In this document: positions 1,165-59,899 of the stretch, one piece after another
How the letters are laid out: the number at the start of each line of letters is the position of its first letter
How positions within the stretch are numbered: position 1 is the first letter of the stretch
Assembly (NCBI RefSeq): GCF_000372725.1
Contig: NW_005201154.1
Coordinates: 118,843-182,842, forward strand
Length of the DNA: 64,000 nt
Reading direction: 5' to 3'
From: Emiliania huxleyi CCMP1516
Taxonomy: Eukaryota
Program-made: the position numbers and the translations under genes
Notes under the pieces: generated by a model
Seen by the model: only the letters and a program-made list of their open reading frames with translations
Database searches by the model: none
Told to the model about the DNA's origin: nothing

Positions 1165-3883
1165 GTGCTGTCCTGATCCTCGGTGTGGTCGCCTCTGCGG
1201 AACAGCCGAGACCGAGACCTCGATACTGTTCAGTCTCGAGGTGTTTTTGGCGGCCGACCGTCAGTGCACGGAGTTGCCCCTTCTCCGACTGCCCCGGCTA
1301 GTTCCCGAGGTCGTCGGAGTGACCCCTTCGCCGCCCGAGACCTAGCGCGGGTGGGTTGGAGGGGACTCGCTGCGGGGAAGGGGGCTGTGGAAGAAGCCGA
1401 TCCCCGTAGTCCGTCCCGCTCCTCCCCATCGGGCCGCATAAGCGGCCGCGCCTCGCAGATTCGTTTCTCGCGACTGGGTCAGGCGCGCGGGGCATCCCCC
1501 GGGTCGCTCGACCAGCGTTCCGAAGAGTGGCCGCTATTCGAAGGAAAGAGTGGGGCCCTCGGGGTACGCCTCGTCCGGCCCCCTCCGAGGGGGGAAGGGA
1601 ATTGCGGGGTCCCCACGGGCGCCTCTCTTCGGCCCTCCCGAGGGGTGTGTGTGTGTGAGTGAGCACTCACACTCACACCGAGGGGGGGAGGGAAGCAAGG
1701 GGGTGGGGGGATCGGGGCGGTGGGGAGGGCGGTCTCGATTTCGTGAGGCTAATACTCGAGTACTTGCCTTTCGGGGAGGGGCCTCAGCCTGGCGAGTCCA
1801 GCTCAACCTGACGTCTTCCCCTCCTCCCCAGAGGCAGCGAGTAGGCAGCGAGAGGAGGTCTCGAGCGCCTATAAGTCAATGCGCGAAGGGCGGTGGCCAG
1901 TGCGCGGGCGAGGGGGGCGGGGCGGGCGGGCAGGCGGGCGGGGAGGAGGGGAGGGGAGCGGTGGCTTAGCCATCAGTCTCTAAGTTTGGCCGCTCCATGC
2001 TCGCCCTCGGGCGGGCGGCTGCGCGGCCGGTCGAGGCCGGCCGCGGGCTGGCTTGCGACGGCTGGCCGCCGCCGCGCGCGCGCGCGCTGCTCGTCGCTGC
2101 TTCGCTTGCTGTGGCGGCGGCTGCGCCGCAGTGCGGCGCGGCTGGCGGCGCAGATGCGCAAAGGATCTGGCTGCTGCCAGAGCTGCACCACCTTGCTGTC
2201 CACCCTCGTGTGCAGCGCCCCTCGACGTCTCCTCCTCCCTCTTCCTCTGCGTCCGCGCAGCGCACGCTCCTAGTTTGTCAGCGCACCTCTACGGCCTCCC
2301 TGTGGCTTTTGGGCGCACCTCTGGTGGTGTTGCGCGCTCTGCGCGGCGCCACCGGCGGCGCGTCGGAGTGGCGGCCGCCACTCGCGTGGTGCCAAGAGGT
2401 TCTCCGGAACCCTTACGCGCACCACGGCGGCCGCCTTCAACTCCCCGAGCGCCCTAGGACCAAGGGCGCGCTCGGCAAAATTCCTGCGCTCTGCGCAAGG
2501 CCACAACCCCTGGGCCAGCTCTTGGTGGAACCACCTCAAGGCCAGCGCGCATGCGTGGGCGATGGACTGACTCCAACAGCTCAAGGGCTCGCACTCTCCT
2601 CACCACCGCGCGCGCGTTGCAGCAGGAGTGCCGCAAACCGCAATGCGGCTTGTGTGCGACTACCGCACTGTGCCGCAGCTGCACCGCTTCTCCTCGGACA
2701 TCATCGTGCACTCGGTGATCCGCTGCGAGGACGCGGTCAGCACCGCGCCGGATCTCTTCTGAGAGCCGGCGCGGATCGCGGACGTGCGGCTTCAAGGCTC
2801 TGCCGGCGGATCTATACTATGGCGTGGCGTATGCCAGGCTGCGGGTCCAAAGTGTCCCGGCGCGGCGCGCGCCACCGCCCCCGGCGCGGGGCGGGATGTC
2901 AGTACGTGAGTACGGTGTCCCTGTCCCTGTGCCCCACTTTCTTCTCCTGCGTCGGTCCCCGCGAACCCCACTATATAGCGCCACCTCGTGAGCTGTCTGT
3001 GAGCTATGTGTAGTGCGTCCAGCAGTCCGGACCCAGTGCTACGGCCGATGACAGCGTGCCTCGTGTCGGCTCCCGAGCCAATCGTGTGCAGCGTGTGTGT
3101 GCGTGTGGGCCCGTCCTCCCCATGCTAGGAGGTGTGTAAGACTGACTGACTGACCTCTACGGCCTGACCATGGCTCGCGCGGCAAAACGGAGATGCAACT
3201 GTGCGCGCGCAGAGGGTGGTCAGGAGGATGGCGCGAGCGGCGTGCGCGCGGGCGTGGCCGGCAGGGTGGCGGCGGCGCTGGCGGCTGCTGGCCCGGCGGG
3301 CGGGCTTCCAAGGCCGGCGCTCCTTGCGGGCACCGGTGGGCACCGCGGCGGCACCTCTCCGCCACACCTTTGTGGCGACCCCCCCTGTCTGGCGCTTTTT
3401 TAAGCGCCTGAGCTCCTCCCAAGGCCGAGCTCCTCCCTGCATCTCTGCAGAATGTCCCTTGTAACGTGAGAGACTGCGAAGTAGTGTTCTTGTTTTGTGT
3501 CCGCTTTCTCTTGTGAGCAGCGTGTCGGCGGTGTGTCGCTCGAGCGTGCCGTCGTCTTCTGAGAGAGATTTTTAGCAATACCAAACAACTCTAACACGCA
3601 CACGTCATTTGGGGCCTGGAGCCCTGTTCACGCGCGCGCAAGACGTGCAGACAGGGTTGCCAGGTGAGAGTGTGTCGTCTTCTGTCCCGCGTCCACCCTT
3701 ACCGCGCTGGTGTGGCCAGGGGCTGAGTGTTCTTCCTGTCCATCTTTTTCTCTCGAGTGTTCTTCGCCTTCCTGTCTATCTGTTTCTCTCGATTTATCTG
3801 GGATGAGATGGGTTGTAAAATTCTTCGCCTCCAAAAATTCTTCTTCTTCGGCACTGCTGGACGCGTCCGAACGGCGCACACAC

Positions 3884-8825: not shown

Positions 8826-11299
8826 ATGCTCGCCGCCGTCCTACCCCTCCTCCGCTACGCGCCGCGGGTGGGCGGCCGCCCCTCGCTGCACCGCTCCTCG
8901 CTGCACCGCGCGGTGTGCTCGTCGGCCGACGGCGGCTCCTTTGCGGAGCTCGGTGTGTCCGAGCCGCTGCTGGCGGGCCTGCAGGGGTTGGGGTTCGAGG
9001 CGCCGACCGAGATCCAGCGGCAGGCGTGGCCGTTCGTGCGCGGCGGCGGCGACGTGGTGCTGCTCGACGAGACCGGGTCGGGCAAGACGATCGCCTACGC
9101 GCTGCCGGTGCTGCAGGCGATGCTCGAGGAGAGGGAGGAGCTGGTCGCAGAGGCGAGGAGGGCGCGCGGCGAGGAGGGCGGCGGCGAGGAGGGGCGGCTG
9201 GTGCTGCCGCGCGTGCCGTCGCAGGCGCTGCTGCTCGCGCCCAACCGCGAGCTCGTCGTGCAGGTCCACGCGACGGTGCGAGCGCTGCTCGCCGGCCTGC
9301 CTCCGTCGCTGCAGCTGCGCTCGTCGGCGCTGACCGAGGACAGAGGGGTCTCCGCGCCGCGCCGTGGCTGCCGCGCCCGCGTCCCGAGGCGTGCGGGCTG
9401 CGTGCCTAGGCGGACGCCGACGGCGAGGCGGACGTCCTCTGCGCCACCCCCGCCGTCGCCCTGCGCTCGTGGCGCGGCTCGCGGGGCGGGCGGTTGCGTG
9501 GGCCGGGGAGAGTGAGGTTCGGGGGTGGGTGGTGGGAGGGCGGGGAGGGTGCGGCGGCGCTGCTCACGCGCTCCGGCCTGCGAGCAGGTGGGCTGTGCTC
9601 GACGAGGCCGACCAGCTCCTCGCGGGCTCCTTCAAGCCGGCGAGCCGCGAGCCGGGTCGCGCGGCGGCGGCTCTTTGCCGTCCTTGCCGGACGGCGCGTG
9701 GCCAGCCTCCCTTGTAGGCGATCCGAGACCGGTACGAGGTGGAGCAGATCTGCGCCGAGCTCAAGCGGGCGGCCAAGGCGTCGGCGGCCGAGGAGGGCTC
9801 GATGGCGGGGAGGGACCTCGCACGCGCTCGCATCGGATTGCACCGCGTCGGCAGCGACGCGGAGCGGCAGGCGGTGAGGGACGCGGCACGCGTGGCTCTC
9901 ATTGTGAAGTGAGCACTATGGATGAATGAATGTGCGGCAGGCGGCGAGGGACGCGGTACGCATGGCTCGCGCAAAGACGTGCGGGCGCCGGGCGGCCCCG
10001 CGCCGCACGCAGTGTCCGGCTCGGAGGCGCGTCTCTGGGCGTTGGTCTGTAGGTGGGCGGGCCTCAAGCAGTTTATGCTGGTGGGCGCCACCATGCCGAA
10101 CGCTGGCACGAAGAACGTCCACCTGCACGTCGAGCGGAGCTGGCCGGTGAGCGAGCGGGAGGCGGAGCGCCCGTCGTTGTTCGGAGCGTCTTCCCCCCTG
10201 CACCGCCTCGGAGCCTGCCTGCAGGCGGCGGCGTGGGTGCGCACCGGCCGCGAGCACCACTCGATCGGCCCTCGGCTGCGTCAGTTCTTCGTGCGGGTGC
10301 GCCGAGACATCGCCGAGATGTCGCCGAGACATCGCCGAGATGTCGCCGGGATGTCGCCGAGATGTCGCCGAGATGTCGCCGAGATGTCGCCGAGATGTCG
10401 CCGGGATATCCCCTGTTTGCGTCAGTTCTTCGTGCGGGTGTGCGGGCCGAGACCGAGCGCCGCGCAAGCCGCCGGCCGTGCCTCGGAGGCCGTGAGAGCC
10501 GTCTCGGAGCCGTCTGGGATAGGTGGGCGAGGAGAGCCGCGCCGCCGCGCTCCGCGCCGCAGTGCAGCAGGGGCCGCAGGGCCGCACTCTGGTGTTCGCA
10601 AACACGCTCGCCACGGCGGAGGCGGCCGAGGCGGAGCTGCAGGGCGTCCGCACTTGCGCCGCCTTCCACAACGGCCCGCCAACCCCCCCCCCCCCCCTCT
10701 CCCTCCCTCCCTCCGCTCCGCCCCTGCCCCCGCCTCTCGCCCGCGCGGCGCAATCGGCGCGGTATGTGGATCGGCACACTGAGCCCGGCCGGCTGTGCGC
10801 GCGTCTCGAGCAGGCGTGGGTCCGGAGGAGCGGCGGGAGCACCTCGCAGCCTTCCAGCAGGGGGAGCTGCCCGTCCTCGTCTGCACCGGCCTCGCCTCGC
10901 GCGGGATCGACTTCACCGACGTGAGCCCGCCCGTGCGAGAGGGGAGGGGGGGGGAGGGAGGGAGAGAAAGGGGGCGAGAGCGGCGGCACCCCCCTCACTC
11001 CCTCCCCGCTCTGCGGCGCTGTGCAGGTTGCCCACGTGGTGCAGTACGAGATGGCGGCCAACGCGGTCGAGTACATCCACCGCGTGGGCCGCACCGCGCG
11101 CGCCGGCCGCTCCGGCGTCGCCACCGCCCTCTACACCGACCTCAGCGCCCCGCTCGTCGACGCGCTGCGCTCCGCGTCCGAGCGGGGCGACCCGATCGAC
11201 GCCCTCTTCTCGCGCCGGCGGCTCTTTCGGAAAAAGTTCAACAAGGCGAGGGAGTATGAGCTCGGCCAGCGTGCAAGTCAGGCGGGCAGGCAGTCCTAG
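8826..11299 (+). CDS. DEAD-box RNA helicase, RH22-like, probably organellar; multi-exon
   Basis: Q motif FAELGV..GFEAPTEIQ, DETGSGKT, LAPNRELVVQ, VLDEADQLL, FMLVGATMP, LVFANT, VLVCTGLASRGIDF, YIHRVGRTARAG. Confidence 0.9.
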
Positions 11300-14729: not shown

Positions 14730-17281
14730 ATGTCAACCCTCTTCGCTCCGCTGCTCTTCGCGCCACTGGCGCTGTTGCTCGCGCTCCTCTCCGCGTGCCT
14801 GCTGTCTCTGCGCCTGCGTGTCGTCAGGGCTCGCCGCGTGCTCGGCGTGCTCCACCCATACGCCAACGACGGCGGCGGCGGCGAGCGCGTCTTGTGGGTC
14901 GCGCTCCGAGAGCTGCTTGCGCGGCACCAGCTGCAGGGCTGGCGTGTGGTGGTCTACACGGGCGACGCGGCCAGCGACGACGAGATCCGCGCGGCCACGC
15001 TGTCGCGCTTCGGCGTCGACGTGCCCGAGAGCGTCGAGTTTGTCCGCCTCCGCAGCCGGAGGGTGGTCGAGCCGTCCAGCTACCCGGTGGCGACGCTGCT
15101 CGGGCAGGCGGTGGGCTCGCTGCTGCTGCTGCTGGAGGCGCTGGCGCGGGCGCCGCCGAGCGTGCTGCTCGACACGACCGGCTATGGCTACTGCTACGCC
15201 GCCGCCAAGGCGCTCGGCGTGCGGCGGGTCGGCTGCTACGTCCACTACCCGATCCTCTCCTCTGAGATGGCGCGAGATGATGCGAGATGATGCGAGATGG
15301 CCCGAGATGGCGCGAGATGATGCGAGATGACGCGAGATGATCCGCCGGCTGCGTCCACCGCCTGGCACTCTCCTCTGGGATGGCGAGGGCGCTGGCGAGG
15401 AGGAGCTGGCGCCAGAGAGCTGGCGCCGGAGAGCGGGCGCATGACACGCTCCAGGACACGGCAGAGTGCCGACAGGTGGACCTGTCCTGGACCTGTCCTG
15501 GACTAGCCTCCAAAGGTGGGCGCAGTCGAGCGGCGCGCCGGCGCGCACAACAACGCGGCGCGCATCGCCAGCTCCCCCGCCCTCACCTCGCTCAAGCTCG
15601 CCTACTACCGCGCCCTCGCCGCTGCGTACGGCGCCTCTGGCGCCGCTGCGGACGTCGTCGTCGCAAACGGCGAGAGCGGCGCGCGGCCTCAGATGCAGCG
15701 AGCGAGACTTGAGGCCTGGCCTCCTCCCCCCCCCTCCGCCAGGCTCGTGGACGGCGGGCCACCTCCGCTCGCTCTGGCGCGGTGCGGCCCGCCGGCCGCG
15801 GAGGTCGCTTACCGCCATGAATGACTGGTCAATGAGTCATGTAGCTGTTGATTGTACAGGCGCGGCCGGCCGCGTGGCGGTCGCCTTCCCTCCGTGCGAC
15901 TCGGCGGCTCTCCTTGTCCATCCTCCTTCTTCATGATTGATGAGAGGAGTGATGAGTGATAGGTGCGATACGGCGGCTCTCCGCGCGCTGCCGCTCGAGC
16001 GCCGCGCCGCGCCCCTCCTCCTCCTCTCCGTCGCGCAGTTCCGTCCCGAGAAGGAGACGCTCGCCCTCCCCGATAGAGCGGGCTGTGCTGCCGGGACGCC
16101 ATGGGCCTGAGACGCCCCCTCCTCCCCTCCACCCCTCCCTCCCCTGCCCCGAAGGACCACGCACTCCAGCTGAAGGCTTTCGCCGCCCTGCTCCGCCGCG
16201 CCTCCGCCTCCGCCGGCGACACGCCGCCGCCGCGCCTCCTGCTGGTGCTCGCAGGCGCCGCCGCCCCCTCTCCCGCTGCCCCCTACCTGTCTCTGGCCGC
16301 CCCTCCCCCCCTCCCTCCCGCCGCCCCCCTCTNNNNNNNNNNNNNNNNNNNNNNNNNNNNNNNNNNNNNNNNNNNNNNNNNNNNNNNNNNNNNNNNNNNN
16401 NNNNNNNNNNNNNNNNNNNNNNNNNNNNNNNNGGTCGTGGCCGAGGACCGCCATGTACCGAGGTTTTTTTTTTCCATAAATTGTATCTCCCCGAGTTGTT
16501 TGTTTTTTTGGTTCTGGCACAGTTTTTCTCCCGAAAAAAAAATGGGGGGGGGAAACGGGGGGGGGGGTGTTTTGTGTCGGAGCCCCCCCCCAAAGGGGTT
16601 TTTTCCCCCCCCCCCCCTGAAAAGGTGGGTCTCCCCCCGAATTGGGAAGTCCCCTTTGGCATCGGGTTGGTGGAATTTATGGCCCGAGGGGGGGGGCTTT
16701 TTCCACCCCTCTTTCCCCGGGGGGGAGTTTTTGCGCGCAGATCAACCACCCGACCGCTGGCCCTTTTCCCTGGTTTTTCTTCGCCTTTGACTGGGGGGGG
16801 GCCCCCCCCCCCCCCCCCCGCGCCGCGCGCCTCTTCCCACAGGCGTCCCTCCCGTCGCGCACGCCTCCGGAGGCCCGCTGCTCGACATCGTCAAGCCGCG
16901 CGGAGAGGCTGCCGAGCCGTAGCCGAGATTCAGCCGTGATACCCGAGATGTGCCCCGAGATGCAGCCCAGATGCAGCCCCAGATGCAGCCCCAGATGCAG
17001 CCCCAGATGCAGCCCCAGATGCAGCCGGAGAGGGGCGGAGAGGGAGGGGCCGCCCCGCAGCCAGCCCAACAGGAACCCCCCCTCCCCGCGGCAAGGTTGG
17101 GCTGCTCGCGGCGACAGAACGCGAGTACACCGAGGCCCTCGCGCAGCTGACGCTCGCGCCGCGCGCCGCGCAGCGCCGCGCCGCCATGGCGGCCGCGGCG
17201 CGCGAGTCGGTGGCGACCCGCTTCTCCGACGAAGCCTTTGCGCAGGCCTTCTGCGCGGAGGCTGGCCGGCTGTTGGCCTGA
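14730..17281 (+). CDS. ALG11: GDP-Man:Man3GlcNAc2-PP-dolichol alpha-1,2-mannosyltransferase; multi-exon, interrupted by an assembly gap
   Basis: N-terminal TM helix; HPYANDGGGGERVLW, DTTGYGY, YVHYPIL, KLAYY, SWTAGHL, VAFPPCD, AQFRPEK|DHALQL, C-terminal RFSDEAF. Confidence 0.9.
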
Positions 17282-17625: not shown

Positions 17626-18604
17626 TCACTGCCCCAGCCCCCACGCCTCGATCTTCTTGGGCAGCAGCTGGTTCTGCTGGTCGCCGTGGCCCAGCTTGCC
17701 ATGGTATCCATGGCCCCAGCTCCAGACACCGCCGTCGGCGGTGATGGCGAGGCTGTGCGCGGGTCGGCGGTGATGGCGAAGCTGTCGTGCGCTCCAGCCG
17801 ACACGGCGACGACGCGCCGGGCAGTCAAGGCCTCAATCTTCTTCGGCAGCAGCTGGTTCTGCTGGTCACGTGGCCCAGCTTGCCATCCTCGCCATCGCCC
17901 CAGCTCCAGACAGCGCCGTCGGCGGTGATGGCGAAGCTGTCGTGCGCTCCAGCCGAGACAGCGACGACGCGCCGCCCAGCAAAGGCCTCGACCTTCCTCG
18001 GCAGCAGCTGGCCCTGCTCGTCGCCGTGGCCCAGCCTGCCAAAGCTTCCATGGCCCCAGCTCCAGACAGCGCCGTCGGCGGTGAAGGCGAGGCTGTGGCC
18101 GCCTCCAGCCGACACACTCACGGCGCACTCGTCACCCAGCGTCGACGGGAGGCGGGTCAGCGTGTTGAGCCGGGTCACGCCCTCGCCGTGGCCGAGGAGC
18201 CCTGGCGTCCAGTCCTCGGCCTTCCCACACGACGACAGCCGCCCCTCGCCGTCGATGAAGAGGCTGTGCCGAGCGCCTCCCGCAGCCCTTGCCGGCGCGT
18301 TGGACTCGCGCAAGAGCGCGGCAAAGCACAGCCAGCGCACGGCGCAGCCCTCGCCCTCTGGTTGCGCCGGCAGCTCGAAGCCGCGCTCTTGCGCCCACAA
18401 GCGGATGCCCTCCTCCGCAAGCGAGGCGTGGAAGAGGAGCGAGACGGCCGCGACGCGAGCGATGTCGATGGGGCTGTCGAAGCGAGAGAGGGCGCGCTCG
18501 AGGAGCTCCCTGGGGAGGTCGAGGAGGCGGGCGGGCGGCGGCGCGTCCGGCGAGGGGGCGGCGGTGGAGGAGGAGGCGAGGCGGCGCGAGCGGCGGGTGG
18601 ACAT
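17626..18604 (-). pseudogene. F-box-like + RCC1-repeat gene, frameshifted and shortened paralog of 54566-55843
   Basis: LLDLPRELLERAL; repeats VSAG..HS..TADGAVWSWG.G..G.LGHGD. 1-bp loss near 17868 (CTGGTCACGTGG versus CTGGTCGCCGTGG) and a short internal duplication at about 17730-17790. Confidence 0.7.
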
Positions 18605-25434: not shown

Positions 25435-26178
25435 AAGCTGAACGTGTCGTACAAGCCGCAGAAGATCGCGCCCTCCTTCGACGGCACGGTGCGCGAGCTG
25501 CTGCACAAGAAGATCCGCGAGGCCTTCATCCACCCGCAGTTCAACACGGACGTGATGAAGCCGATGCTCATCGAGCGGTTGCTCGACCAGGAGGTGGGTG
25601 GAGCCGCCGCCCCCCCCCCCCCCCCACCCCCTCCGCGGGTGGAGAGCTGTGAAGGTCGGCCCCTTCTGAGTCCCCTCCTCACACCGAGTGGCGCGTCACG
25701 GACAGGTCAAGTACCTCTCGGGCGGGGAGCTGCAGCGCGTCGCGCTCGTGCTCGCGCTCGGCGCGCCGAGAGTCGCCGAGAGTCGCCGAGAGTCGCCGAG
25801 AGTCGCCGAGAGTCGCCGAGAGTCGCCGAGAGTCGCCCCGTGCCCGCGCTCGGCACTGCCTCCTCCCCTCCCCGGCACTGCCTCCTCTACCTCTTCTGCA
25901 GTGGCGAGTTGCTGGCTGGTGTGGCCAGGGAAGCCCGTGTGCAATGCCCCGTGTGTGGTGTGTCCCGCGAGTGCGGTGTGCCCCGTCGTCCGTGCCAGGA
26001 CCGTGTGTCCCAGCGACTGACTGGTGTGTGCAGGGAAGCCCGCCGACCTGCACCTGATCTCCCCGTATCTCCCCCACACCTCCCCGCATCTCCCCTGCAG
26101 GGAAGCCCGCCGACCTGTACCTGATCGACGAGCCGTCCGCCTACCTCGACTCAGAGCAGCGCATCTCCGCCTCAAAGG
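25435..26178 (+). CDS. ABCE1: ABCE1/RLI1 internal fragment on a small contig between two gaps
   Basis: [65 protein letters not shown]. Confidence 0.9.
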
Positions 26179-28770: not shown

Positions 28771-28987
28771 NNNNNNNNNNNNNNNNNNNNNNNNNNNNNN
28801 NNNNNNNNNNNNNNNNNNNNNNNNNNNNNNNNNNNNNNNNNNNNNNNNNNNNNNNNNNNNNNNNNNNNNNGTGTGTTGCCTCAATGTTCTTTTAATGCGC
28901 GCCCCCGCCGAAATACACTGCAAATACACCATACACGCGAGATGCGTCGGCAGCGACGCGCACGACCTCTTAAGAAGCACCGTGTCG

Positions 28988-29205
28988 TTAGGATTAGGGT
29001 TAGGGTTAGAATTAGGGTTAGGGTTAGGGTTAGGGTCAGAGAGCGTTCAAGCCGTTGTGCAGCTCCTAAGAGAATGGTCCGGTTTGGGCCGAAACCAAAT
29101 GGAGGAATCAGCGGTCCATCGACACGAGCTCTCGGTGAATGCTTTGGGTTCTTCGGGCTAGGGTTAGGGTTAGGGTTAGGGTTAGGGTTAGGATTAGGGT
29201 AAGGG
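28988..29205 (+). repeat. Two short interstitial telomeric (TTAGGG)n tracts separated by about 120 bp of unique sequence
   Basis: TTAGGG units with TTAGGA/TTAGAA variants at about 28988-29035 and 29158-29205. Confidence 0.9.
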
Positions 29206-29295
29206 GTTGGTTGTCGTCGCGCGCTCTCGATATCTGGCTAGACAGAGACACAGCAGCAGAGGCGACCCAAGCGACACATCAGAGCATGGATGCTT

Positions 29296-29814
29296 GGGGG
29301 CGCGAGCCGCCATCTTGGACTGTGAGGCGAGTATTTGCAACCGGGAGCTCGCCGCCGCCCCTACACCGCCGCCGCCGCCCTCCCGGTGGCAAATAATAGC
29401 CCAAGTCGAAGAGTGCGCCCCGCCCTCGGTATCTGGGCGGCAGGCGGGACTAGAGTGGCACGCTGGTGCACGGATGGGGGCGCGAGCCGCCATCTTGGAC
29501 TGTGAGGCGAGTATTTGCAACCGGGAGCTCGCCGCCGCCCCTACACCGCCGCCGCCGCCCTCCCGGTGGCAAATAATAGAGCCCAAGTCGAAGAGTGCGC
29601 CCCGCCCTCGGTATCTGGGCGGCAGGCGGGACTAGAGTAGCACACTGGTGCGCGGATGGGGGCGCGAGCCGCCATCTTGGACTGTGAGGCGAGTATTTGC
29701 AACCGGGAGCTCGCCGCCGCCCCTACACCGCCGCCGCCGCCCTCCCGGTGGCAAATAATAGCCCAAGTCGAAGAGTGCGCCCCGCCCTCGGTATCTGGGC
29801 GGCAGGCGGGACTA
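29296..29814. repeat. Tandem array of about 2.9 copies of a 180-182-bp unit, each a long imperfect hairpin
   Basis: Units start at 29296, 29476 and 29658 and are almost identical. Confidence 0.95.
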
Positions 29815-44512: not shown

Positions 44513-47500
44513 ATGCTCCAACGCGCTGCGGCTGCTGCCGCCCCAAAACGCTGGTGGCTTGCAAACAGCGGCTCCGCACCGCTCCTCGCGCCGGCCTACG
44601 CAGCACACCAGCGTTCGGTGCCGCGGCTGCCCATCCCGCCGCTCGGCGAGACGCTCGAGCGCTACCTGCGAGCAGCACAGCCGCTGCAGACGCTGGAGGA
44701 GCACGCAGCCACGCGGGCGGCAGTCGCACAGTTCTTCGATACCGACGGGCCCGGGCTCCAGCGCCTCCTCGAGGAGGCTGACGCCGCACTTCCGCACGAC
44801 TCATCGTACCTCGAGTCGCTGTGGTACCGACTCGCCTACCTCGGGCCCCGCTCTCCGGTGCCGATCCACGCCAACCCGTGCTTCACCCTCGCCCCGCCCT
44901 CGCGCCACACGCCGCCTCTGGAGCGCGCCGCCGGGCTCCTCGCCAAGGCGGCACAGTGGGCGCACGCGCTACGGACCGGCACCCTCACCGCTCCGACTGC
45001 CAAGGGCGGCTCACCGCTGTGCATGGCGCTGCTTCCCGCCGTGCTAGGGACGGCGAGGATCCCCCGCCAAGGCTGCGACGTGCTCCACTCCGCCTCCGCG
45101 CCGGACGCCGCGGCGGTCTGCAGGCGCGGCGAGTGGTACTCCGTCCCGCTCTTCGACGCGACAGGCGCACCGCTCACCTTCGTCTCACCCTCGTCAGAAC
45201 AAGCACCAGGATGCCTCAGCACGAGGGGCATCGTTCTCCGCAGGCGCACCGCTCCCGCCCGCGACTCTCCTCGACTCGCTGAAGCAGCTGCCGCCGGCCG
45301 CGGCGCACGCACCCGCAGTCGGGGCGCTGACGGCGTGGCGGCGCGACGAGTGGGCGGAGGCTCGCGCCGCGCTCTCCAGCTCGCCGCAAAACGAGTCGTC
45401 TCTGAAGGCCATCGACGAGGTCAGGAGTCTCCAGCCCGCCGCTCGCGTATCGCTGCGCTCGCTCGTCCTCTCCACCCCTCACCCCCACCCCTCAACCCCC
45501 ACCCCTCACCCCCACCCCTCACCCCCCACCCCTCACCCCCACCCCTCACCCCCCACCCCTCACCCCCACCCCTCACCCCCACCCCTCAACCCCCACCCCT
45601 CACCCCCACCCCTCAAACCCCCACCCCTCACCCCCCCACCCCATCACACCCCCAGGCTCTGCTCGTCCTCTCACTCGACGACTCCGCGCCAGCCTCGCCG
45701 ACCGAGCTCGCCCGCACGTCCCTCTGCGGCGACGCGACGGCGCCCGACAGCCGCGCACCGCCCAGCTCGCACAGCCCCTCCGCCTCTCCCCTCGCCGCAC
45801 TGAGGCGTGTGTGTGCGCCGCTCGACCACCCCACAGGCGCGGTGGTACGACAAGCTCCAGCTGCTCGTCTTCGCCGACGGACAGGCGGCCATCAACTTCG
45901 AGCACGCGCCGCAGGACCGATCTCTCCCCATATCTCCCCATATCTCCCCATGTATCTCAACTTCGAGCACGCGCCGCAGGACCGAGATCTCTCCCCATAT
46001 CTCCCCATATCTCCCCATATATCTCAACTTTGAGCACGCGCCGCAGGACCGAGATCTCTCCCCATATCTCCCCATATATCTCAACTTCGAGCACGCGCCG
46101 CAGGACCGAGATCTCTCCCCATCTCTCCCCATATCTCCCCATGTATCTCAACTTCGAGCACGCGCCGCAGGACCGAGATCTCTCCCCATATCTCCCCATA
46201 TCTCCCCATATATCTCAACTTCGAGCACGCGCCGCAGGACCGAGATCTCTCCCCATATCTCCCCATATCTCCCCATATCTCCCCATATATCTCAACTTCG
46301 AGCACGCGCCGCAGGACCGAGATCTCTCCCCATATCTCCCCATATCTCCCCATATCTCCCCATATATCTCAACTTCGAGCACGCGCCGCAGGATGGGGCG
46401 CAGGTGGTCTCCCTCGCGTCGCACTTGGCCGAGGCGGGCGAACACGAGGCGGGCGAACACGAGGCGGGTGGGCGAAGGCCGGCGGCTCGAGCGGCGCCGC
46501 CACGCCGGCTGCGCTTCGACGTGTCTCCAGAGCTCGGCGCTAAGGTTGAGGCGGCGCGAGCCTGCGCTGCGGCCGAGGCGGCGGCGGCTCAACTTGGGCG
46601 CCGCCACGCCTCCGCCTCTCGAGCTGGGCACCGGTCGCACACCCCTTGTTCAGGCGGCGGCCCTCGACCTCGACACCGCCACGGTGCGCTCCGTCTCGGC
46701 TAGCTGGGCCAAGGGGCGCGGCGTCTCGCTGGACGGTTGGGTCGTGGCCGCTCTCTCGAGCTGGCGCGCAGAGCCCGCCGAGAGTGGGCGAGATGTGGCG
46801 AGAGTAGGCGTGGTGCAGCTCTCCTTCCAGCTGGCGCACAGGCGGCTGACCGGCGGCCTGTCGAGCACGTACGAGGCTTGCTCCACGCAAAGCTTCTCGC
46901 ACGGCCGCACCGAGGCGGCCGCAGTGCCGTGCTTGCTGTCGCATTTGCCTCGCCACTCCCATTCGCGCTCTTGTTGGCCAAAGGTGATCCGGCCGGTGAC
47001 GCGCGAGTCGGCGGCGCTGCTGCAGCGGCTCGAGGAGGGAGACGCCGACGCGGCGGCGCTGCGAGCGGCGCTCGACGCTCAGCGTCGTCTCGTGGCCGAC
47101 TGCCAGCGAGGGAAGGGGCACGGGCGGGGCACCGCCTCCTTCCTCGACCTTTCCTGGACGTTTCCTGAACGTCTTGCTGTAGGCACGGGCACGAGCGTCA
47201 CCTCCTCGCGCTCCTCGTCCAGGAGCGGGAGGCGGGCTTGCCCGCCCCCTCCTCTAGACCCTCTCCTAGACCTCTCCCGGAGCCGTCCTGTAGGCGGAGG
47301 AGGCGGGGATGCCCACGCCCGGCCTGTTTCGCGACTCCGGCTGGGCCACCGTCACTGCGTCCCTCGTCTCAACTTCGGGGTTGCGCTCCCCCGCGCTCGG
47401 CTGGTTCGCATTCGGCCCGGTGGCGCGGCAAGGGGTCGGCCTCGGCTACTTGCTCTCCCCCGACGGCGTCGCGCTCTGCGCCACTTCCTTCCGCGGCAGC

Positions 47501-51222: not shown

Positions 51223-54200
51223 TCACTCGCGGCGCCTCTTCTTGGCGGCGGTGGTCCAGCTGCCGTCCACACCGTGCTCCTCCGCCAGCCGCTGCCTCAC
51301 GTCGTCGGGCGAGTGGAGGAAGAAGTGCTGCCGCAACGCGGCCGGCGGCGTGAGCGCGGCGGCGCCGCCCCGGGGAGAGAGCAGCGCCTCCCACACGGGC
51401 GAGACCGGAGCGACCGTGAAGGGCGTCGGCGGCGCGTCGACTGGCTCCGTGGCGGTGGCGGGCGGGCGCGGCGGCGGCTGCAGCAGCGCGGGCCACGTCT
51501 GAGAGCGAGTGACGCGCGGCACGCTCGACTGCGCGCTCAGCCGCGAGCGACGCGCCGCCCCACGCGTGGGCTGGGCGTACCACGCGACCAGCAGCACCAG
51601 CCGCTGCTCGGCGATGCTCTGCCCGCCTAGGACACGTCCGTGACATGTCCGTGACATGTCCCACAGCCGCTGTGCTCGGCGATGCTCTGCCCGCCGCCGC
51701 CCTTCGCCGTGGCTCTGCCCCGCCCACGGCCGCTGCGGGTGCGGTCGGCACGGGAGGCCCGGCTGCGCGCTGCACCGCCGCCACCACAGCCGCGGCCTGC
51801 AGCGCCATACGCCCCGCCGCCAGAGCCGCGGCCCGGAGCCTCTGCGCCGCAGGGTGGGCCGCCGTTGAAGGCGCCCGGCAGGACCCCATGCAGCCGGTCG
51901 CCTGTGGGGCATGTCGTGGACGTGTCGTGGACGTGTCGTGGACGTGTCGTGGACGTGTCGTGGACGTGTCGTGGACGTGTCGTGGACGTGTCGTGGACGT
52001 GTCGTGGACGTGTCGTGGACGTGTCGTGGACGTGGCGGGAGGGCCCGTGCAGCGTGTCGCCTTTGAAGGTGAGGAAAGAGCGGCTTGCGGGGTGGACGAG
52101 GTACGCGCGCGAGCCCGCCTACGACATGTCCGCGACATGTCCACGACATGTCCACGACATGTCCACGACATGTCATGCACGCGCGCGAGCCCGCCTGCCC
52201 GCCGAGCGTCTCGTCGATCACCTGCGCGCCAGGCGCGGCCTCGGTCAGCTCGCTCCTTCGTGGGCCAGCCCAGCCCCGTACCGCCTGCCGCCTGGTCGAG
52301 GACCATATCTCCCCATATCTCCCCACATCTCCCCATATCTCCCCGTACCGCCTGCCGCCTGGTCGAGGACCATATCTCCCCATATCTCCCCACATCTCCC
52401 CACATCTCCCCGTACCGCCTGCCGCCTGGTCGAGGACCATATCTCCCCATATCTCCCCATATCTCCCCATATCTCCCCGTACCGCCTGCCGCCTGGTCGA
52501 GGACCATATCTCCCCATATCTCCCCACATCTCCCCATCTCTCCCCGTACCGCCTGCCGCCTGGTCGAGGACCAAGCTCTCGGGCGCCCCGCCGTCGGAGA
52601 TGGGGGGAGATGTGGGGAGATGGGGGAGATATGGGGAGATGTCGCACCAGGGTCGGGTCCCCGGCGTCAGAGAGGTAGACGACGGAGGAGACGAGCGGGT
52701 GGAGCACCTACTTCGACCACTCTTCCTGTGTGTATGGAGAGGCAGACGACGGAGGAGACGAGGCGGGGGAGAGGACCTCTCCTCCCGCCTCGAGCGCGCC
52801 CTCCTCCACGTCGTAGTGGAGCTCGTGCCCGACGCCTGTTCGCAGCGAGGAGGGGTGAGGGGGCGCGGGCCACACGGGGGCACGCAATCGTGCAGCCCGC
52901 CCCCCCCTCCACGCCTCTCCCCGCCCCGCGGGAGTGCACCCACCACTCGGCGGACTGCGGCGCCACCTCGCCGGCCAGCTCGCCGGCCAGCGGCGCCAGC
53001 CGGCGCACCAGCCGCGTGACCACATCCTCGTGCGGCGACGGCGGCGAGGCGAGGTCGACGTACCACGTGAAGTAGCGCTTCTCTGCCGAGGCCGACGCGT
53101 ACCGCGTCTCGCTCCAGTACGCGGCGCCTACAGGACATGTCTCGGACGTGTCGTGGACGTGTCGTGGCCGTGTCGCCTCGCTCCAGTGCGCGGCGCCAGG
53201 AGCAAAGGCGCGGCGCAGCTGCTCGCACGTCTCTCGAGGGACAGCGTCCGGGTACACGCGGACCTGTACTCTCGGGTGATCTCGGGTAATCTCGGTTAAT
53301 CTCGGGTAATTTCGAGGGACAGCGTCGGGCACACGCGGACCGGGCAGCCGTCGCGCAGCCCCGAGCCGGCTGGAGGCGGCACCTTGCGCGCAGGGACCCT
53401 CGCCGCCCGCCACACGCACGGAGAGAGGCGCCACCGGAAGCCGAAGGAGCGGATCGCGCCCTCCGCCTCGGTGGCGTCCCAGCTGCGAGGCGAGGAGGGC
53501 GGCGTGCATAGTCGCGAGGCCGACGCAGCGGCGGCGCGGCTCGTACACAAACGCGTCCGCCCAGTCATACTCGCCCTCCTCCTCGCCCTCCTCCTCGCCC
53601 TCCTCCGCCTCCGCCTCCGCCTCCGCCCCCGCCTCCGCCTCCTCCCCGCCCTCCTCCCCGCCCTCCTCCCCGCCCTCCTCCCCGCCCTCCTCCCCGCCCT
53701 CCTCCCCGCCCTCCTCGCAGAGGGACCCTGGGAGCCTCGACACTCTCCGCCACAGAGACAACGCCTCCTCGGCGTCGCCGCCGTCGCGCCGCAGCAGGGC
53801 GAGGCTCATCATCGCGGGCGCGTTCTGCGGCCACGCGGCGAGTGAGGCGCGCAGCAGCGCCTACGGGCAGGGCGAGGGTGGCTCCTCTCGCAGAAGTCCT
53901 CAGCCAGGCAGCCATCCGACCACAAGTCCAGTCCGCCTCTGCCTCTCGTGCTGGTGCCGACGCCCGGGCGAGGAGCGGAAAGCCGAGCGCCGCGGCCTTG
54001 TCCAGCTGGAGCTCGGCGCGGCCGTTGAGCGCGGCGCTCAGGAGCAGGCTCGGAGGAGGCAGCGGGAGTGCCGCGTCCCGTGGCCAGGCGCACGGCGCTG
54101 GGACACGGCCCTCTCCGCCGCCGATGGCGTCGGCAAGAGCCTGCAGTTTCGTGTCTGCCCGAGTGTCGCCAGCCTCGCACGCGTCCTGTGCGTCGAAGAA

Positions 54201-54227
54201 GAGCGCAAGCAGCGAGGCGTCGTCCAT
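51223..54227 (-). CDS. Multi-exon protein with a helical (TPR-like) N-terminus and a 2OG-Fe(II) oxygenase-like domain
   Basis: AEWWVHSR, GHELHYD.EE (HxD), HPLVSSVVYLSDAGDPTL, LHGVLPG, QRLVLLVAWY across exons; acidic EEGG repeat. Confidence 0.6.
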
Positions 54228-54565
54228 TCGCAGCGGCTCTCCGAGGCGCGAATTCTTTTCCTCTGAAGAAAAAAGACGAGAGAGGGGTTGGGAGGCGGGA
54301 AAAGCAAAGACAAGGACCCACGGACGACTGCAAGGGAGGAGCTGCGATCGTCTCGGTCGCTACCTACTTGCCCCCGGCCGGATCTGTGCTACTGAATCTA
54401 GATACAAGATACGCTGATGAGTGATGTGTGATGATATCAATCAGAGAGGGAGAGAGAGAGAGAGATTTTTAGGAGCCAACAAGTTCAATCAGAGACCCGA
54501 GACCGCTGAGATCTAAGTATGGGGCTTAAGGCTGAGGTGGCAGCCGAGGTAGGTACGCCCTTCAC

Positions 54566-55843
54566 TCACAGCCCCGGCGCCCACGCCTCGACCTTCTTGG
54601 GCAGCGGCTGGTTCGACAGGTCCTCTCCGTGGCCAAGGCAGCCGCTTTCGCCCAGACCCCAAGCATAAACAGCGCCATCGGCCGTGGTGGCGAGGCTGTG
54701 GAATGCTCCAGCCGACACAGCGACGACGCGCTGGCCAGCCAAGGCCTCGACCTTCTTGGGCAGCAGCTGCTCCTGCGTGTCGCCGTGGCCCAACTCGCCC
54801 CAGTCTCCAACGCCCCAGCTCCAGACGCTGCCGTCGGCGGTGAGGGTGAGGCTGTGGTAGCCTCCGGCCGACACAGCGACGACGCGCTGGCCAGCCAAGG
54901 CCTCGACTTTCTTCGGCAGCAGCTGGCGCTGCTTGTCGCCGTGGCCCAGCCGGCCACCGCCTCCAGCGCCCCAGCTCCAGACGGCGCCATCGGCAGTGAT
55001 GGCGAAGCTGTGGAATGCTCCAGCCGACACAGCAAGGGCGCGCTGCCCAGCCAAGGCCTCGACCTTCTTCGGCAGCAGCTGCGTCTCCTCGTCGCCGTGG
55101 CCCAGCTCGCCGTTCCCTCCCCAACCCCAGCTCCAGACGGCGCCATCAGCGGTGAGGGCGAGGTTGTGGTACTCTCCGACCGACACAGCGACGACGCGCC
55201 GCCCAGCAAAGGCCTCGATCTTCTTGGGCTGCCACTGGTTCTGCTGGTCGCCGTGGCCAAGCTTGCCGCAGCCTCCGTCGCCCCAGCTCCAGGCGGCGCC
55301 GTCGGCGGTGATGGCGAAGCTGTGATAGGCTCCAGCCGACACGCTCACAGCGCGCTCGCCGCCCAGCGTCGACAGGAGGCGCGTCGGCGTGTTGAGCTGC
55401 GTCACGCCCTCGCCGTGGCCAAGCAGCGCGGGCATTGGATTGTAGTCCGGAGCCGAGCCGCACGACGAGAGCTGCCCCTCGCCGTCGATGAAGAGGCTGT
55501 GCCGTTCGCCTGCGGACACCCTCGCCGGCGGGTTGGCCTTGCGCAGGAGCGCGGCAAAGCACAGCCACCGCACGGCGCAGCTCTCGCCCTCTGGCAGCGC
55601 CGGCAGCTCGAAGCCGCGCCGTTGCGCCCACAAGCGGATGCCCTCCTCCGCAAGCGAGGCGTGGAAGAGCAGCGAGACGGCTGCGACGCGAGCGATGTCG
55701 ATGGGGCTGTCGCAGCGAGAGAGGACGCGCTCGAGGAGCTCCCTGGGGAGGTCGAGCAGGCGGGCGGGCGGCGGCGCGACTGGCGAGGGGGCGGCGGCGG
55801 CGGCGGAGGAGAGGCGGCGCGGGCGGCGGTGCGGCATGGACAT
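54566..55843 (-). CDS. Intronless F-box-like + RCC1-repeat (beta-propeller) protein, 425 aa
   Basis: LLDLPRELLERVL; six-seven VSAG..HS.A.TADG.VWSWG.G..G.LGHGD repeats. Confidence 0.9.
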   Translation of the reverse strand: MSMPHRRPRRLSSAAAAAPSPVAPPPARLLDLPRELLERVLSRCDSPIDIARVAAVSLLFHASLAEEGIRLWAQRRGFELPALPEGESCAVRWLCFAALLRKANPPARVSAGERHSLFIDGEGQLSSCGSAPDYNPMPALLGHGEGVTQLNTPTRLLSTLGGERAVSVSAGAYHSFAITADGAAWSWGDGGCGKLGHGDQQNQWQPKKIEAFAGRRVVAVSVGEYHNLALTADGAVWSWGWGGNGELGHGDEETQLLPKKVEALAGQRALAVSAGAFHSFAITADGAVWSWGAGGGGRLGHGDKQRQLLPKKVEALAGQRVVAVSAGGYHSLTLTADGSVWSWGVGDWGELGHGDTQEQLLPKKVEALAGQRVVAVSAGAFHSLATTADGAVYAWGLGESGCLGHGEDLSNQPLPKKVEAWAPGL

Positions 55844-55993
55844 CGCGAAGAAAAAAGAAAATGCACTCGCATGAACAGCTCAGGAGCAACTGCAACCTTA
55901 AACTCTCCCTCACACGGGCTCGAAAATAAAGAAAGCTTAGTGCTGGTCGGCAGCGCCGCCTGGGCTCCGTCGAGCTCTGCTAGCTGTCGCCTA

Positions 55994-58900
55994 ATGGAGT
56001 GCCGCCGCGTCACGCTCTGGGCCACGCTCGCCCTCGACCTCGCCGCCGCGCTGCTCCTCGGCACCGCCACCGATCCGGCCCGATTCTTTCGCGACGTCTG
56101 GCCTCACCAGCGAGCGCTTTTTGGCGAGACCACCCTCGACCTCATCGCCCTCGCCCTGCTGCGCGTGGTGGTGGTCGTCGCGCTGCTGCTCGCCACTGCA
56201 GGCCGGGCCGCCAGAGTGGCCTCCTCGGCGGCTGCCGCCTCGCCGCCGCTGCTCGAGCCGCTCCAGCTCAACGGCACTAGCGAGCCGCAGCACCCGGTTG
56301 GCGACAAAGGTGGGTGGTGGAGGGCTGCCGTGACGCCCGTGCGGTGCAGCGGCGCGCTCCTCGCGCTGACGGTCGGCTACAGCGCGCTCAAGGCCCTCTT
56401 CCGCATGCTCCAGTCCGGCCTCGGCGACGGCTCTTCCTCGGGCTCTCTCCCGACCGGTGGGACGGAGCCGGCCGAAGTCTGGTTCTGGCTCCTAGAAGCA
56501 GAATACGTGTTCTTGTATCCCAACTAAGCCCGAGAGGGCCACGTATTCAGCCGTCTTCGGCCGTGTTCCGCTGTATTCACTGTATTCTTCTCCGTTGTAC
56601 TCACGCGGTGCTCTGAACACGCTGCACAATACCGCATTCCCGCCCTGATGTTGGCGTATTCAGCACGTAGGTTCTGGCTCACGCTGGCGGCGGGGTGCGT
56701 GTCGTCGAGCGGAGAGCACGTCCTCTGCAGGCGGCTGCTCCGCCGCGCCGCGGCCGCCGGCGAGGGGGGGGCGGCGGCCCGGGCGGGCGGCAAGCAGAAG
56801 AAGAGCGACGACCCCGCCGAGGCTGCCAAGAAGGCGGGAGCCCAGCGGGAGATATGGGGAGATATGGGGAGATATGGGGAGATACGCCAAGAAGGCGAGA
56901 GCCCAGTGGGCCCGGAGGCGGGTCGGTGGCGGGTCGGTGACGCGCGGCGGGTGACATGTGCACATGCGCGACGTGTGCCGCAGGCGTACCTCGAGCGGAC
57001 TGGAGATATGGGGAGATATGGGGAGATATGGGGAGCATGCGACGTGAGCCGCAGGCGTACCTCGAGCGGACTGGGCCGAGGCAGGTCCAGTCCGTGCGCG
57101 CCATCTTCGCAATGGTGAGAAGAGAAGAGAAGAGAAGAGAAGAGAAGAGAAGGTCCAGTCCGTGCGCGCCATCTTCGCAATGGTGAGAAGAGAAGAGAAG
57201 AGAAGAGAGTGCGCGCCATCTTCGCAATGGCGAGAAGCAGCACTGGCGCCGGAGGAGGGCCGTGCTGGAATAGCAACCCATGCGGAGTCACAATTGCTCA
57301 GGTGAAGCCGGACTGGCACCTGATGGCTTTCGCGTACGCGTCACTCGCCATCGCCGCCGCCGGGGACACGTCGATCCCCTTCCTGTACGGCCAACTCATC
57401 GACGCGATCGCAATCTCGCGCGACGTGGGCAAGTTCCAGCAGTACATGCTGCTGCTCGTCGGCACCGCCCTCGTCACCGGCGTCTTCACCGGATTCCGAG
57501 GCTCCACCTTCATCGTCATCGGCGGCCGCTTCTCAGTGCGGCTGAGGCAGCGCCTGTTCGCCTCGCTGCTGCGGCAGGAGCTCGACTTCTTCTCCGCCGT
57601 CCGCACGGGCGACATCACCTCGCGCCTCTCTGCAGACTGCCAAAAGGTGGGCGACCAGGTGCAACTCAACGTCAACGTCTTCCTGCGCTCCGTCATCCAG
57701 GCCCTCTCCCTCCCCTCCTCCTCTCCCTCGCCTCCTCCCGCCACCCCACCATCGACCCGCCACACCCTAACGAGCGCACGGCGGCTAATCCCCTCCTCGA
57801 GCGCCCGTGCTCCCCCTCTCACCACAAGCTCCCCGAAAAGGGGGCCGTCGCAGCTTTCTTTTCTGTCTCGTCACCGCCCGCTCTCCCGCAGGTGCTGCTC
57901 GATGACGTGCCCATCTCTCGGCTCGACCCGGGCTGGTTCCACCGGCAAGTTGCGCTGGTGGGGCAGGAGCCCGTCCTCTTCGCCCGCTCGATCGAGGACA
58001 ACATCTGCTACGGCCTCGGCGAGCGCGGGGAGGGGCGGCCCTCGACAGAGGAGGTGCACGCCGCCGCGCAGCTCGCCAGGACATGTCCTGGACAGGTCCG
58101 TGACATGAACATGCACATGTACATGTACATGTCGCAGGTGCACGCCGCCGCGCAGCTCGCCAACGCGCACGACTTCGTCTCCGGCTTTGACCTCGGCTGC
58201 GGCGCGCCGGCTGGCACGAGGAGCGCCCCTTCACCACTGAGCGGCGTGAGCAGGCTTCGAGCTCGGCTACGCCACGCCCGTCGGCGAGCGGGGCGCGCAG
58301 TTGAGCGGCGGGCAGAAGCAGCGCATCGCGATCGCGCGCGCGCTGGTGCGGCACCCGTGTGTCGCGTGCTCTCTCCCCGCCATCTCCCCGCATCTCCCCG
58401 CATCTCCCCGCATCTCCCCGCATCTCCCCGCATCTCCCCGCATCTCCCCGCAGGTGCGGCACCCGTGCGTGCTGCTGCTCGACGAGGCGCCGAGAAGAGA
58501 AGAGAAGAGAAGAAAAGAGCGTGCTGCTGCTTGCGAGGCACCGAGCTGCAGCTATCTCCCCGTATTCCCCATATCTCCCCCTATCTCCCCTATCTCCCCG
58601 TATCTCCCCACATCTCCCGTGCTGCTGCTCGACGAGGCGCCGAGCTGCGGCGCGGGCGCGGGCGCGGAGTTGCGCCGCAGCCTCACCGCGGCCCTTTGCC
58701 GTCCGCTCAGGCGACGAGCGCGCTCGACGCGGAGAGCGAGGCGGTGGTGCAGGCGGCGATCGACTCCATGATTGCGCAGGGCGGGATGACGGTGGTCGTC
58801 ATCGCGCACCGGCTGTCGACCATCCGGAACGCCGACCGCATCTGCGTCGTCAAGGGGGGGAGGGTCGCCGAGGAGGGCCCGCACCACGAGCTCATGACAA

Positions 58901-59025
58901 GGCCGGCGGGCGTCTACGCGAAGCTCGTCTCGAAGCAGATGGCGCTCCACTCGGGCTCGACCGGCTCCCTCTCCGGCGCCGGTGGCAGCGCGGCAAACCT
59001 GGACGCGGGAGGGCAGGAGGCATGA
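55994..59025 (+). CDS. ABCB (TAP/ABCB9-like) half transporter; multi-exon; central part apparently missing
   Basis: Extra N-terminal TM region; [84 protein letters not shown]. No Walker A found. Confidence 0.85.
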
Positions 59026-59899
59026 CGGAGGCTTGCGCCGCGAGCCAGCCGCGAGCCAGTATTGTAGCGAACGCGCTCTTTCTCCCCACGTTTCCTGAAA
59101 GAGCGGCCCGGAGTTGACGCTCTCTCGCAGCTCGGCCCGCCGCCCCTTGCCGGTTGGCCCGCGTTTTGGCCGCAGATAGCACACGGCGGCTTGTCTCGTT
59201 GTTGTGCAGACTGTGCGGGGAGAAGCAGAGGCCACGCGAAATCCTTTATTGCGCTCACTCGCACCGCGCGAACACCTGTGGCTGTGCGCTGCAGTGGGTG
59301 CACGGGCCTCGCACGCTTGACGCTGGCGGCGCGGGGCGGCCGGCGCGCGCCGCCGTAGATCCACTTGGAGCACTTGGAGTGCAGTCATCAACCTGCGAAC
59401 CTCATTTTTTACGAGCTAAGAAGGGGCACAAGCTAAGTTCCATTTCACTGTGGCACAGCTCGCGTTACAAACCTTGATTGTGACCATTTGCGCCATTTCG
59501 TACCTCTCGGTGCCTTCCAGAGGCGAGCCGTGAGAGGGTGCAGGCCGAAACCACAGCCGCTAACGTCCGTGTGGCCGAACGGGACCAAACTTTCGCCGCC
59601 GGGTCCCGGGCCACGGGTAATGGGGCCGATCCCGCATTTTCCCCGCAGCTTACTCGACGCTCTTGTGCCCCGAACTTTCCTCCCCCCGTCCCGAGCACGA
59701 CCAGAGCTGCTCCGGCGTGGTTTGGAGCGAGGTACGGGTGGCGGCGGGTTCGAGTAAGCTGCGGGGGAAATGCGGGATCCTCCCCATTTCATAGGTGCTC
59801 CAACGCCCTAGCCGGCTCGGGAGCACTGTCCTGCCCGTTATATGCGCACCCGCTTACGCTTTTAGGCTCTCCGGCGGCCTCAGGGGCCTTGCCGAGGGC

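Follow-up and report, generated by a model that had tools for sequence, protein, structure and literature searches.

Introns opening with a copy of the next exon in an ABC half-transporter gene of Emiliania huxleyi, and their probable origin in exon duplication with simple-repeat filler

The window analysed here is a GC-rich stretch of 64 kb from Emiliania huxleyi CCMP1516, with six N gaps in its assembly, in which we have followed an ABCB9/TAP-like half-transporter gene on the forward strand. Membership among the ABCB half-transporters is indicated by an ABC_membrane domain (Pfam PF00664, E 3e-22) together with a nucleotide-binding domain (NBD) in which the signature, Walker B and H-loop motifs can be read; Pfam returned no match to the single NBD exons. 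ABCB9 is the JGI name of the orthologues, which are 860 aa long, and the last exon is 95% identical to the Emiliania huxleyi CCMP1516 model P0076. Several introns of this gene begin with a copy of the start of the next exon, hereafter an echo, that is in most cases separated from the exon by filler. The parts of the gene are:

55994-59026 (+): ABCB9/TAP-like half-transporter gene, with N-terminal membrane part, ABC_membrane and nucleotide-binding domain
56482-56670 (+): further echo intron, GT-AG, 10-nt exact echo, seen as a 189-nt skip in 3/4 RNA runs
57701-57891 (+): joint of the 5' part of one intron with the 3' part of another, the exons between being missing from the window
57892-58053 (+): exon with the Q-loop region, before intron 1 (RNA, spliced alignment)
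58054-58137 (+): intron 1, GT-AG, 84 nt, phase 0, a 25-nt exact echo (58054-58078) plus 59 nt of ACATG-type filler
58138-58183 (+): 46-nt exon, its first 25 nt echoed in intron 1 (RNA contigs)
58184-58253 (+): intron 2, GC-AG, 70 nt, phase 1, recognizable throughout as a decayed duplicate of the 68 nt of exon that follow
58254-58345 (+): exon with the ABC signature motif
58346-58453 (+): intron 3, GT-AG, 108 nt, phase 0, a 14-nt exact echo plus C-rich filler of 10-nt period
58454-58486 (+): 33-nt exon with Walker B
58487-58710 (+): intron 4, GC-AG, 224 nt, phase 0, weak echo only
58711-59026 (+): last exon, D-loop and H-loop, to the stop codon

Walker A and the complete membrane domain are missing from the window copy and are present in P0076 and, in terms of length, in RNA: 786 nt (262 codons) including Walker A, absent from the window, are carried by the X10 and X12 RNA contigs between 57700 and 57892. 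The two leftover intron halves at 57701-57891 would join the flanking exons in frame, and DNA contigs break at a CT-rich repeat near 57702-57738; the middle of the gene was probably lost by deletion or by assembly collapse at this repeat. Both read depth and proteins suggest that the 3' part of the gene exists in several copies.

Removal of 58054-58137, 58184-58253, 58346-58453 and 58487-58710 leaves the nucleotide-binding domain uninterrupted; the same four introns were picked when the gene was aligned blind, with splicing allowed, to the orthologue P0056. In the public model P0076 both GC introns are mis-spliced. The end of intron 2 coincides with a Gln codon of the ABC signature. The expectation of the initial annotation that these junctions can be read with some confidence is borne out for three of the four introns by RNA, from which introns 1 and 2 (contigs of 4/4 runs) and intron 3 (3/4) are removed at GT or GC..AG, as spliceosomal introns are. 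The X15 contig joins 58051 to 58136 and continues with exactly the five differences of the second echo; in the X10, X12 and X14 contigs the joint from 58078 to 58253 carries the remainder of the 46-nt exon between, and 58359 is joined to a copy of the Walker B exon. Support for the splicing of intron 4 is indirect and comes from the X10 contig, which fits the copy at 58618 in 28 of its last 32 letters, and from the X12 contig, with 10 unaligned letters before 58709. Eight of 15 matching sequencing runs were aligned, X16-X19 being left out as they contained almost none of the query words. Three JGI proteins (P0001, P0122, P0123) read through all four junctions as predicted. Their JGI contigs of about 1 kb lack the four introns and in two cases clearly keep the upstream one; they are either retained-intron transcripts or an intronless gene copy.

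Introns 1 to 3 bear the echoes first described for them. An exact 27-nt repeat (58052-58078 and 58136-58162) frames intron 1, which carries AG|GT in both copies and in which a perfect 25-nt copy gives way abruptly to filler; the first 25 bases of intron 2 match the next exon in 20 positions, and intron 3 combines its 14-nt exact echo with eight copies of a 10-nt filler. All three echoes beat every null draw (P<=0.0025), the null being exon positions that start with the same two bases, and each exact repeat occurs only twice within the 64 kb. Since the intron 1 copy matches at 25/25 positions against an exon identity of 81-84% to orthologues, this copy must be young. Intron 2 can be aligned from end to end with the 68 nt of exon that follow it (33 tails tested; P 0.011 uncorrected), and the likeness persists after its first 25 nt are dropped (P 0.007 uncorrected); it looks like a plain, filler-free 68-nt tandem duplication. 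Introns 1, 3 and 4 are not exon-derived along their length.

The description of four consecutive echo introns therefore holds for three of them, as the start of intron 4 matches the next exon in only 7/10 bases (P 0.02-0.03, same null). The repeat noted for it is real, with exact 27-nt copies at 58468-58494 and 58618-58644, but it does not have the geometry of the other three: the 27-mer spans the exon end and the donor, so that a duplicated donor junction lies inside the intron. A reading of this repeat as an intron 58469-58618 was rejected, for its removal alone causes a frameshift and its ends would be GT..CC. The first reading had missed a third, diverged copy at 58520-58545; intron 4 thus holds two extra copies of exon end plus donor, one diverged and one exact (58618-58644), and the copies are separated by AGAAG-type and C-rich fillers. 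An origin of intron 4 by duplication over its whole length was not significant (P 0.25).

That the echoes might be assembly artefacts, or chance likeness arising from splice consensus in GC-rich DNA, was considered in view of the six N gaps, the probable collapse at 57702-57738 and filler lengths that differ between the window and other samples. Contigs of all four DNA runs contain introns 1 and 2 (whole; introns 3 and 4 are covered in part only), an independent assembly, P0004, has introns 3 and 4 with shorter filler, and the echoes exceed all null draws; this explanation is hardly credible, is refuted for the echoes and could apply only to the missing middle of the gene. One of the four DNA runs may be the source of the window sequence. 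All four have 12 nt less filler in intron 1 than the window has, and in another allele the echo of intron 3 extends to 20 nt. The contigs of the four runs, which drop rare variants, contain no intronless allele of introns 1 or 2, nor any echo-free one; the presence/absence polymorphism looked for in introns gained by break repair was thus not found for introns 1 and 2, both present in all four runs.

The comparison of intron positions with other haptophytes, suggested with the initial annotation, found all four positions absent from the four genomic homologues compared (L001, L002, L006 and L012), as expected of introns gained by break repair. Thirteen homologous loci were found, of which nine were splice-aligned; L007-L009 were left out, L013 is a distant match, and L011 repeats L010 and was counted once. 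Rows in poorly aligned parts were dropped (L012 1/8, L006 4/5, L005 6/7, L003 1/1 and the neighbouring gene of the window 4/11). L001, a multi-gene contig, and L002, which starts at an intron end, are nearly intron-free over this region, and L012 is intron-rich. In a quick tree L001/P0020 and L002/L010/P0091 grouped with the window (98), and the wider clade around this group includes a Chrysochromulina protein; on this ground we take L001, L002 and L010 to be haptophytes. L001 and L002 could have lost introns here. The available text of a study of Phaeocystis strains reports 7, 10, 3 or 0 introns in rhodopsin genes (PMC11347835), which agrees with fast intron turnover in haptophytes.

The orthologue L010/L011 (region 1875-3630 of L010, its splicing read from sequence) has seven introns filled with telomere repeat, six of them at sites empty in L002; five of these six have echoes of 12-21 nt. 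L002, 88% identical to L010 in nucleotides, shares only its echo-free intron and lacks the other six. L010 thus shows what characterizes interstitial telomeric insertions, that is, repeats with a target duplication at a site empty in the orthologue. The telomere C-strand adjoins the acceptor in 7/7 introns, preceded by the G-strand in 2/7; only five of the seven have a CTRAY motif no more than 20 nt from the acceptor. The CTAAC of the telomere unit resembles the consensus of branch sites. One apparent GA donor was seen in L010 (intron 3265-3374), where the alternative of a GC donor, with one extra codon, is compatible too. Near its end P0153, closely related to L002, passes into what reads like telomere repeat (VRVRVR), and its start lies at another apparent intron, which suggests further private introns in the L002 clade. 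In L004, a homologue from another haptophyte, one of the introns at 521-598 and 703-793 has a 7-nt left match (mirror type) and the other a 9-nt echo with a short CTA repeat.

Echoes occur in 8/14 homology-fixed introns of the window (two genes), 5/7 of L010, 1/3 of L004 and 0/9 of L012, L006 and L005, the window and L010 differing from the last three with a Fisher P of 0.003. Put as a comparison of flanking repeats, this is 13/21 against 0/9 in distant homologues, with positions 180.0 and 384.0 as the only shared controls from the same genomes. Over residues 173-384 the window and L010 share 1 of 4 positions each. Position 180.0 is shared and has no echo; 384.0 is common to the window, L010 and the distant L012 and in L010 bears an echo, an argument against taking echoes strictly as marks of birth unless this intron was gained in parallel at CAG|GT.

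The second gene of the window used in these counts lies on the reverse strand. Its junctions were placed by homology (alignment to two homologues).

51229-54227 (-): neighbour gene, function unassigned, with 4 echo introns among 7 homology-fixed ones
53196-53128, 52776-52708, 52194-52119 and 52060-51902 (-): its homology-fixed echo introns
53340-53264 and 51694-51627 (-): extra echo introns in poorly conserved parts

Its intron 52222-52647 (minus strand) contains a diverged copy that seems to span an exon-exon junction and is closer to a homologue's residues than to the present exon; this is perhaps a displaced old echo. Arrays of splice-junction copies with 10-nt or 5-nt fillers lie at 56834-57054, 57085-57235, 52274-52573 and 45892-46355, with as many as seven repeats of a 67-nt unit, and would, from their sequence, be the work of the same process as inside intron 4. 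A blind scan of the window, based on sequence only, gave candidate echo introns of 66-70 nt at 15894-15962 (+), 26054-26120 (-) and 9805-9940 (+), the one at 26120 with a 6-nt left match. As statistics these scans say little: 10/362 YAG|GY sites (2.8%) scored against 0.4-2.6% of control triplets, and in a second scan 7/17 with filler against 71/299 controls, repeats matching themselves in both. Interstitial TTAGGG tracts (28987-29036, 29155-29205) adjoin a 182-nt tandem repeat (29295-29814), and at 54530-55845 (-) and 17700-18120 there are intronless genes with tandem units of 155-156 nt, which we take to read like RCC1 repeats.

The claim that did not survive is that of a textbook AG|GT duplication. 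Under this scheme a segment containing AG|GT is duplicated in all four introns, both splice sites come from it and microsatellites grow later. Intron 1, with AG|GT in both copies, agrees with it in part, and a filler-free tandem duplication such as intron 2 is what it predicts. In 9/15 echo introns, introns 2 and 3 included, the upstream exon does not end in AG; the match to the left of the junction measures only 1-4 nt in 15/15, where 60-73% internal junctions are expected, and in intron 1 the change from copy to filler is abrupt. In every case the donor marks the beginning of the echo, and it is mostly the insert that supplies the AG. As a general mechanism the scheme is largely refuted, and for the four introns together we find it very improbable.

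This one-sided geometry is also what the duplication reading explains least easily. Simulated random duplications of 10-35 nt with the real fillers were spliceable on minimal signals in 6% of draws, and among those that passed (the filter being only G|GY and YAG) 73% had the junction inside the repeat, against 0/10 in the window; the chance of 0/8 internal junctions under the simulation is 3e-5, with the filler-free intron 2 included. The duplication reading therefore needs an extra filter on the acceptor. The geometry would follow without recourse to chance if the introns were older and the echo a later scar, left when a break in the intron was mended with 10-40 nt copied across the junction from spliced RNA or cDNA; the copy would rejoin the 3' part of the old intron, and an exon starting with GT or GC would then furnish a new donor. 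The start of the echo at the junction, the missing left arm (15/15) and the preserved YAG are so accounted for, and the echo in L010 at the shared position 384.0 agrees with it. Retention of only the 5'-most intron is the pattern expected of cDNA-driven intron loss, and L002 retains just that one. Against the scar stand the match of intron 2 to exon sequence up to its 3' end, the absence of an echo-free allele of introns 1 and 2 from the four DNA runs, and above all the positions, which are almost never shared between lineages, so that most introns were gained anyway and a second mechanism of gain would be needed. We regard the scar as unlikely.

The donor dinucleotide equals the first two bases of the next exon in 14/14 fixed introns of the window (8 GC, 6 GT; P 0.0003), a coupling which the six without clear echo do not show significantly alone (P 0.07). 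In these coding sequences G|GC makes up 77-80% of the G|GY sites, and the available text on curated E. huxleyi junctions gives 56-65% GC donors, 4% GA donors and frequent intron retention (PMC4028052); on these figures GT donors are still favoured. The same text attributes the GC-AG majority to base composition, and in its available parts mentions no echo (PMC4028052).

The inserts themselves were compared for any common origin. Seventeen of them matched one another only in repeat units, in both orientations, with no common non-repeat body, and hence are not alike across their length as introners are; nor do they have inverted ends with a short target duplication of fixed size, the duplications measuring 10-39 nt and end matches 3-9/10, high only where the repeat unit is palindromic or head-to-head. 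An 11-nt repeat family is common to five of the inserts, and for i1, g2d and g2f the alignment runs up to their 3' ends. The fillers of the window itself are non-telomeric. The E. huxleyi genome paper reportedly remarks on intronic repeats of 10-11 bp. A retroelement-type insertion of 5'-truncated, acceptor-ended RNA (excised introns or a SINE-like introner made of simple repeat), with target duplications of 10-40 nt and the donor taken from the duplication, might be read from that shared family and its 3' alignment. The layout of target-primed insertion has the 3' end of the RNA at the downstream duplicate with 1-4 nt of overlap, and this fits the geometry. A preprint describes, in its available part, introners that bring a 3' site with them and recruit the 5' site from the duplication (10.1101/2022.06.06.494994). 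The inserts speak against such an origin, as they share only repeat units in either orientation, with neither a common body nor consistent inverted ends; moreover, the same fillers occur in duplications within introns, where they lack YAG ends, and head-to-head telomere tracts and the filler-free intron 2 misfit a single RNA template. Like the scar, it has in our view little probability.

The reading we favour, and hold to be rather more probable than its rivals combined, is that a short duplication and a repeat filler arose together at a repaired staggered break, the exon start, once duplicated, providing the donor and the filler, at its end, the acceptor. The spliced introns that repeat the start of the next exon in their first 10-40 bases would probably have formed recently through duplication of a short stretch of exon, in most cases with simple-repeat filler added between the copies while a staggered break was repaired. 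The duplicated stretch would start at G|GT or G|GC, so that the first copy supplies the donor, and the end of the filler, often with the G of the second copy, would supply the YAG; as splicing restores the protein exactly, the insertion could survive. The weakest step is the filter, by which selection for a branch site and YAG close together would remove insertions with internal junctions. Intron 2 would be the filler-free extreme, a 68-nt tandem duplication, and duplication plus filler may also strike donors and intron interiors, as in intron 4, yielding no new introns. In the lineage of L010 the filler is telomeric and twice head-to-head, as if telomerase had extended both broken 3' ends. 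The idea of intron birth by local duplication, put forward in the initial annotation, thus agrees with the splicing, with the absence of the introns from 4/4 homologues and with echoes above chance; no intronless allele of introns 1 and 2 turned up in the four DNA runs. Our evidence comes from two window genes and one orthologue pair.

Known routes of intron gain come close to this one at several points. Introns attributed to break repair in the available texts are likewise lineage-specific, flanked by direct repeats and filled with inserted DNA that has no genic source; in our case a repeat of 10-40 nt always starts at the donor and supplies it, more than half of the introns examined are marked, and the insert is a simple repeat typical of the lineage. 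The available part of a review gives 43% repeat-flanked introns in Daphnia and no excess in Drosophila. In the AGGT tandem duplication of Rogers and in ATP2A1, exon becomes intron with the protein unchanged, as the accessible passages have it (PMC4974935, PMC3443670), and intron 2 is of this kind; elsewhere in our genes the AG usually lies outside the duplicated exon, filler dominates, GC donors are common and there are many cases per gene. The same passages describe a potato RdRp intron with an exonic donor and an acceptor from elsewhere (PMC4974935, PMC3443670). Introners that take the 5' site from a target-site duplication, one of which is reported in Chrysochromulina, resemble our introns in the roles of duplication (donor) and insert (acceptor) and in the many gains per lineage (available parts of 10.1101/2022.06.06.494994; PMC12130899), whereas the examples in their figures have duplications of 4-8 bp and a shared element body. 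Since the duplications here are long and variable and the inserts share only repeat units, similarity-based introner searches are likely to miss such introns. Interstitial telomeric sequences at breaks, which sometimes come with head-to-head tracts and a target duplication left by a staggered break, resemble L010/L011 in this; in mammals, according to the available text, duplications are rare at such insertions (3/66 horse loci) and none lies in coding exons (PMC7215372), while those of L010 sit in exons as apparent introns. Our literature search, in which most subscription papers fell outside coverage, found no description of such echoes for haptophytes. What sets these introns apart from the known routes of gain is how frequent they are, the recruitment of GC donors from exon sequence and the fillers peculiar to each lineage.

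A search for further filler introns gave 7, 0, 5, 0 and 0 matches in viral contigs, none usable, and two in genome contigs. One of the latter, L021, a eukaryote-like contig filed in an archaeal genome bin, has at 876-962 an apparent GT-AG intron filled with telomere repeat and lacking an exon echo; in L022, a contig of a bacterial bin, telomere repeats stand at the end. In the small viral contigs L020, L023 and L026, runs of CTAACC units lie in an apparent intron of a replication gene.

Outside introner bursts the source of most newly gained introns is described as unknown (PMC4974935). In the genes examined here, from a major bloom-forming alga, it can be read in more than half of the introns, each of which carries its age in the decay of its echo, and the echoes account for wrong gene models and misplaced junction reads. 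As public genomes and RNA exist for this alga, the question can be tested genome-wide at once. It is tempting to speculate, as a possibility that we ourselves rate below even, that exon duplication plus repeat filler, with no transposon involved, has produced most Emiliania introns and continues to produce them, their donors being drawn from GC-rich coding sequence and so producing the GC-AG majority, and that in sister haptophytes telomerase would provide a filler with its own branch-site motif. Exon-recruited donors would thus offer a possible cause for the GC-AG majority published for this species.
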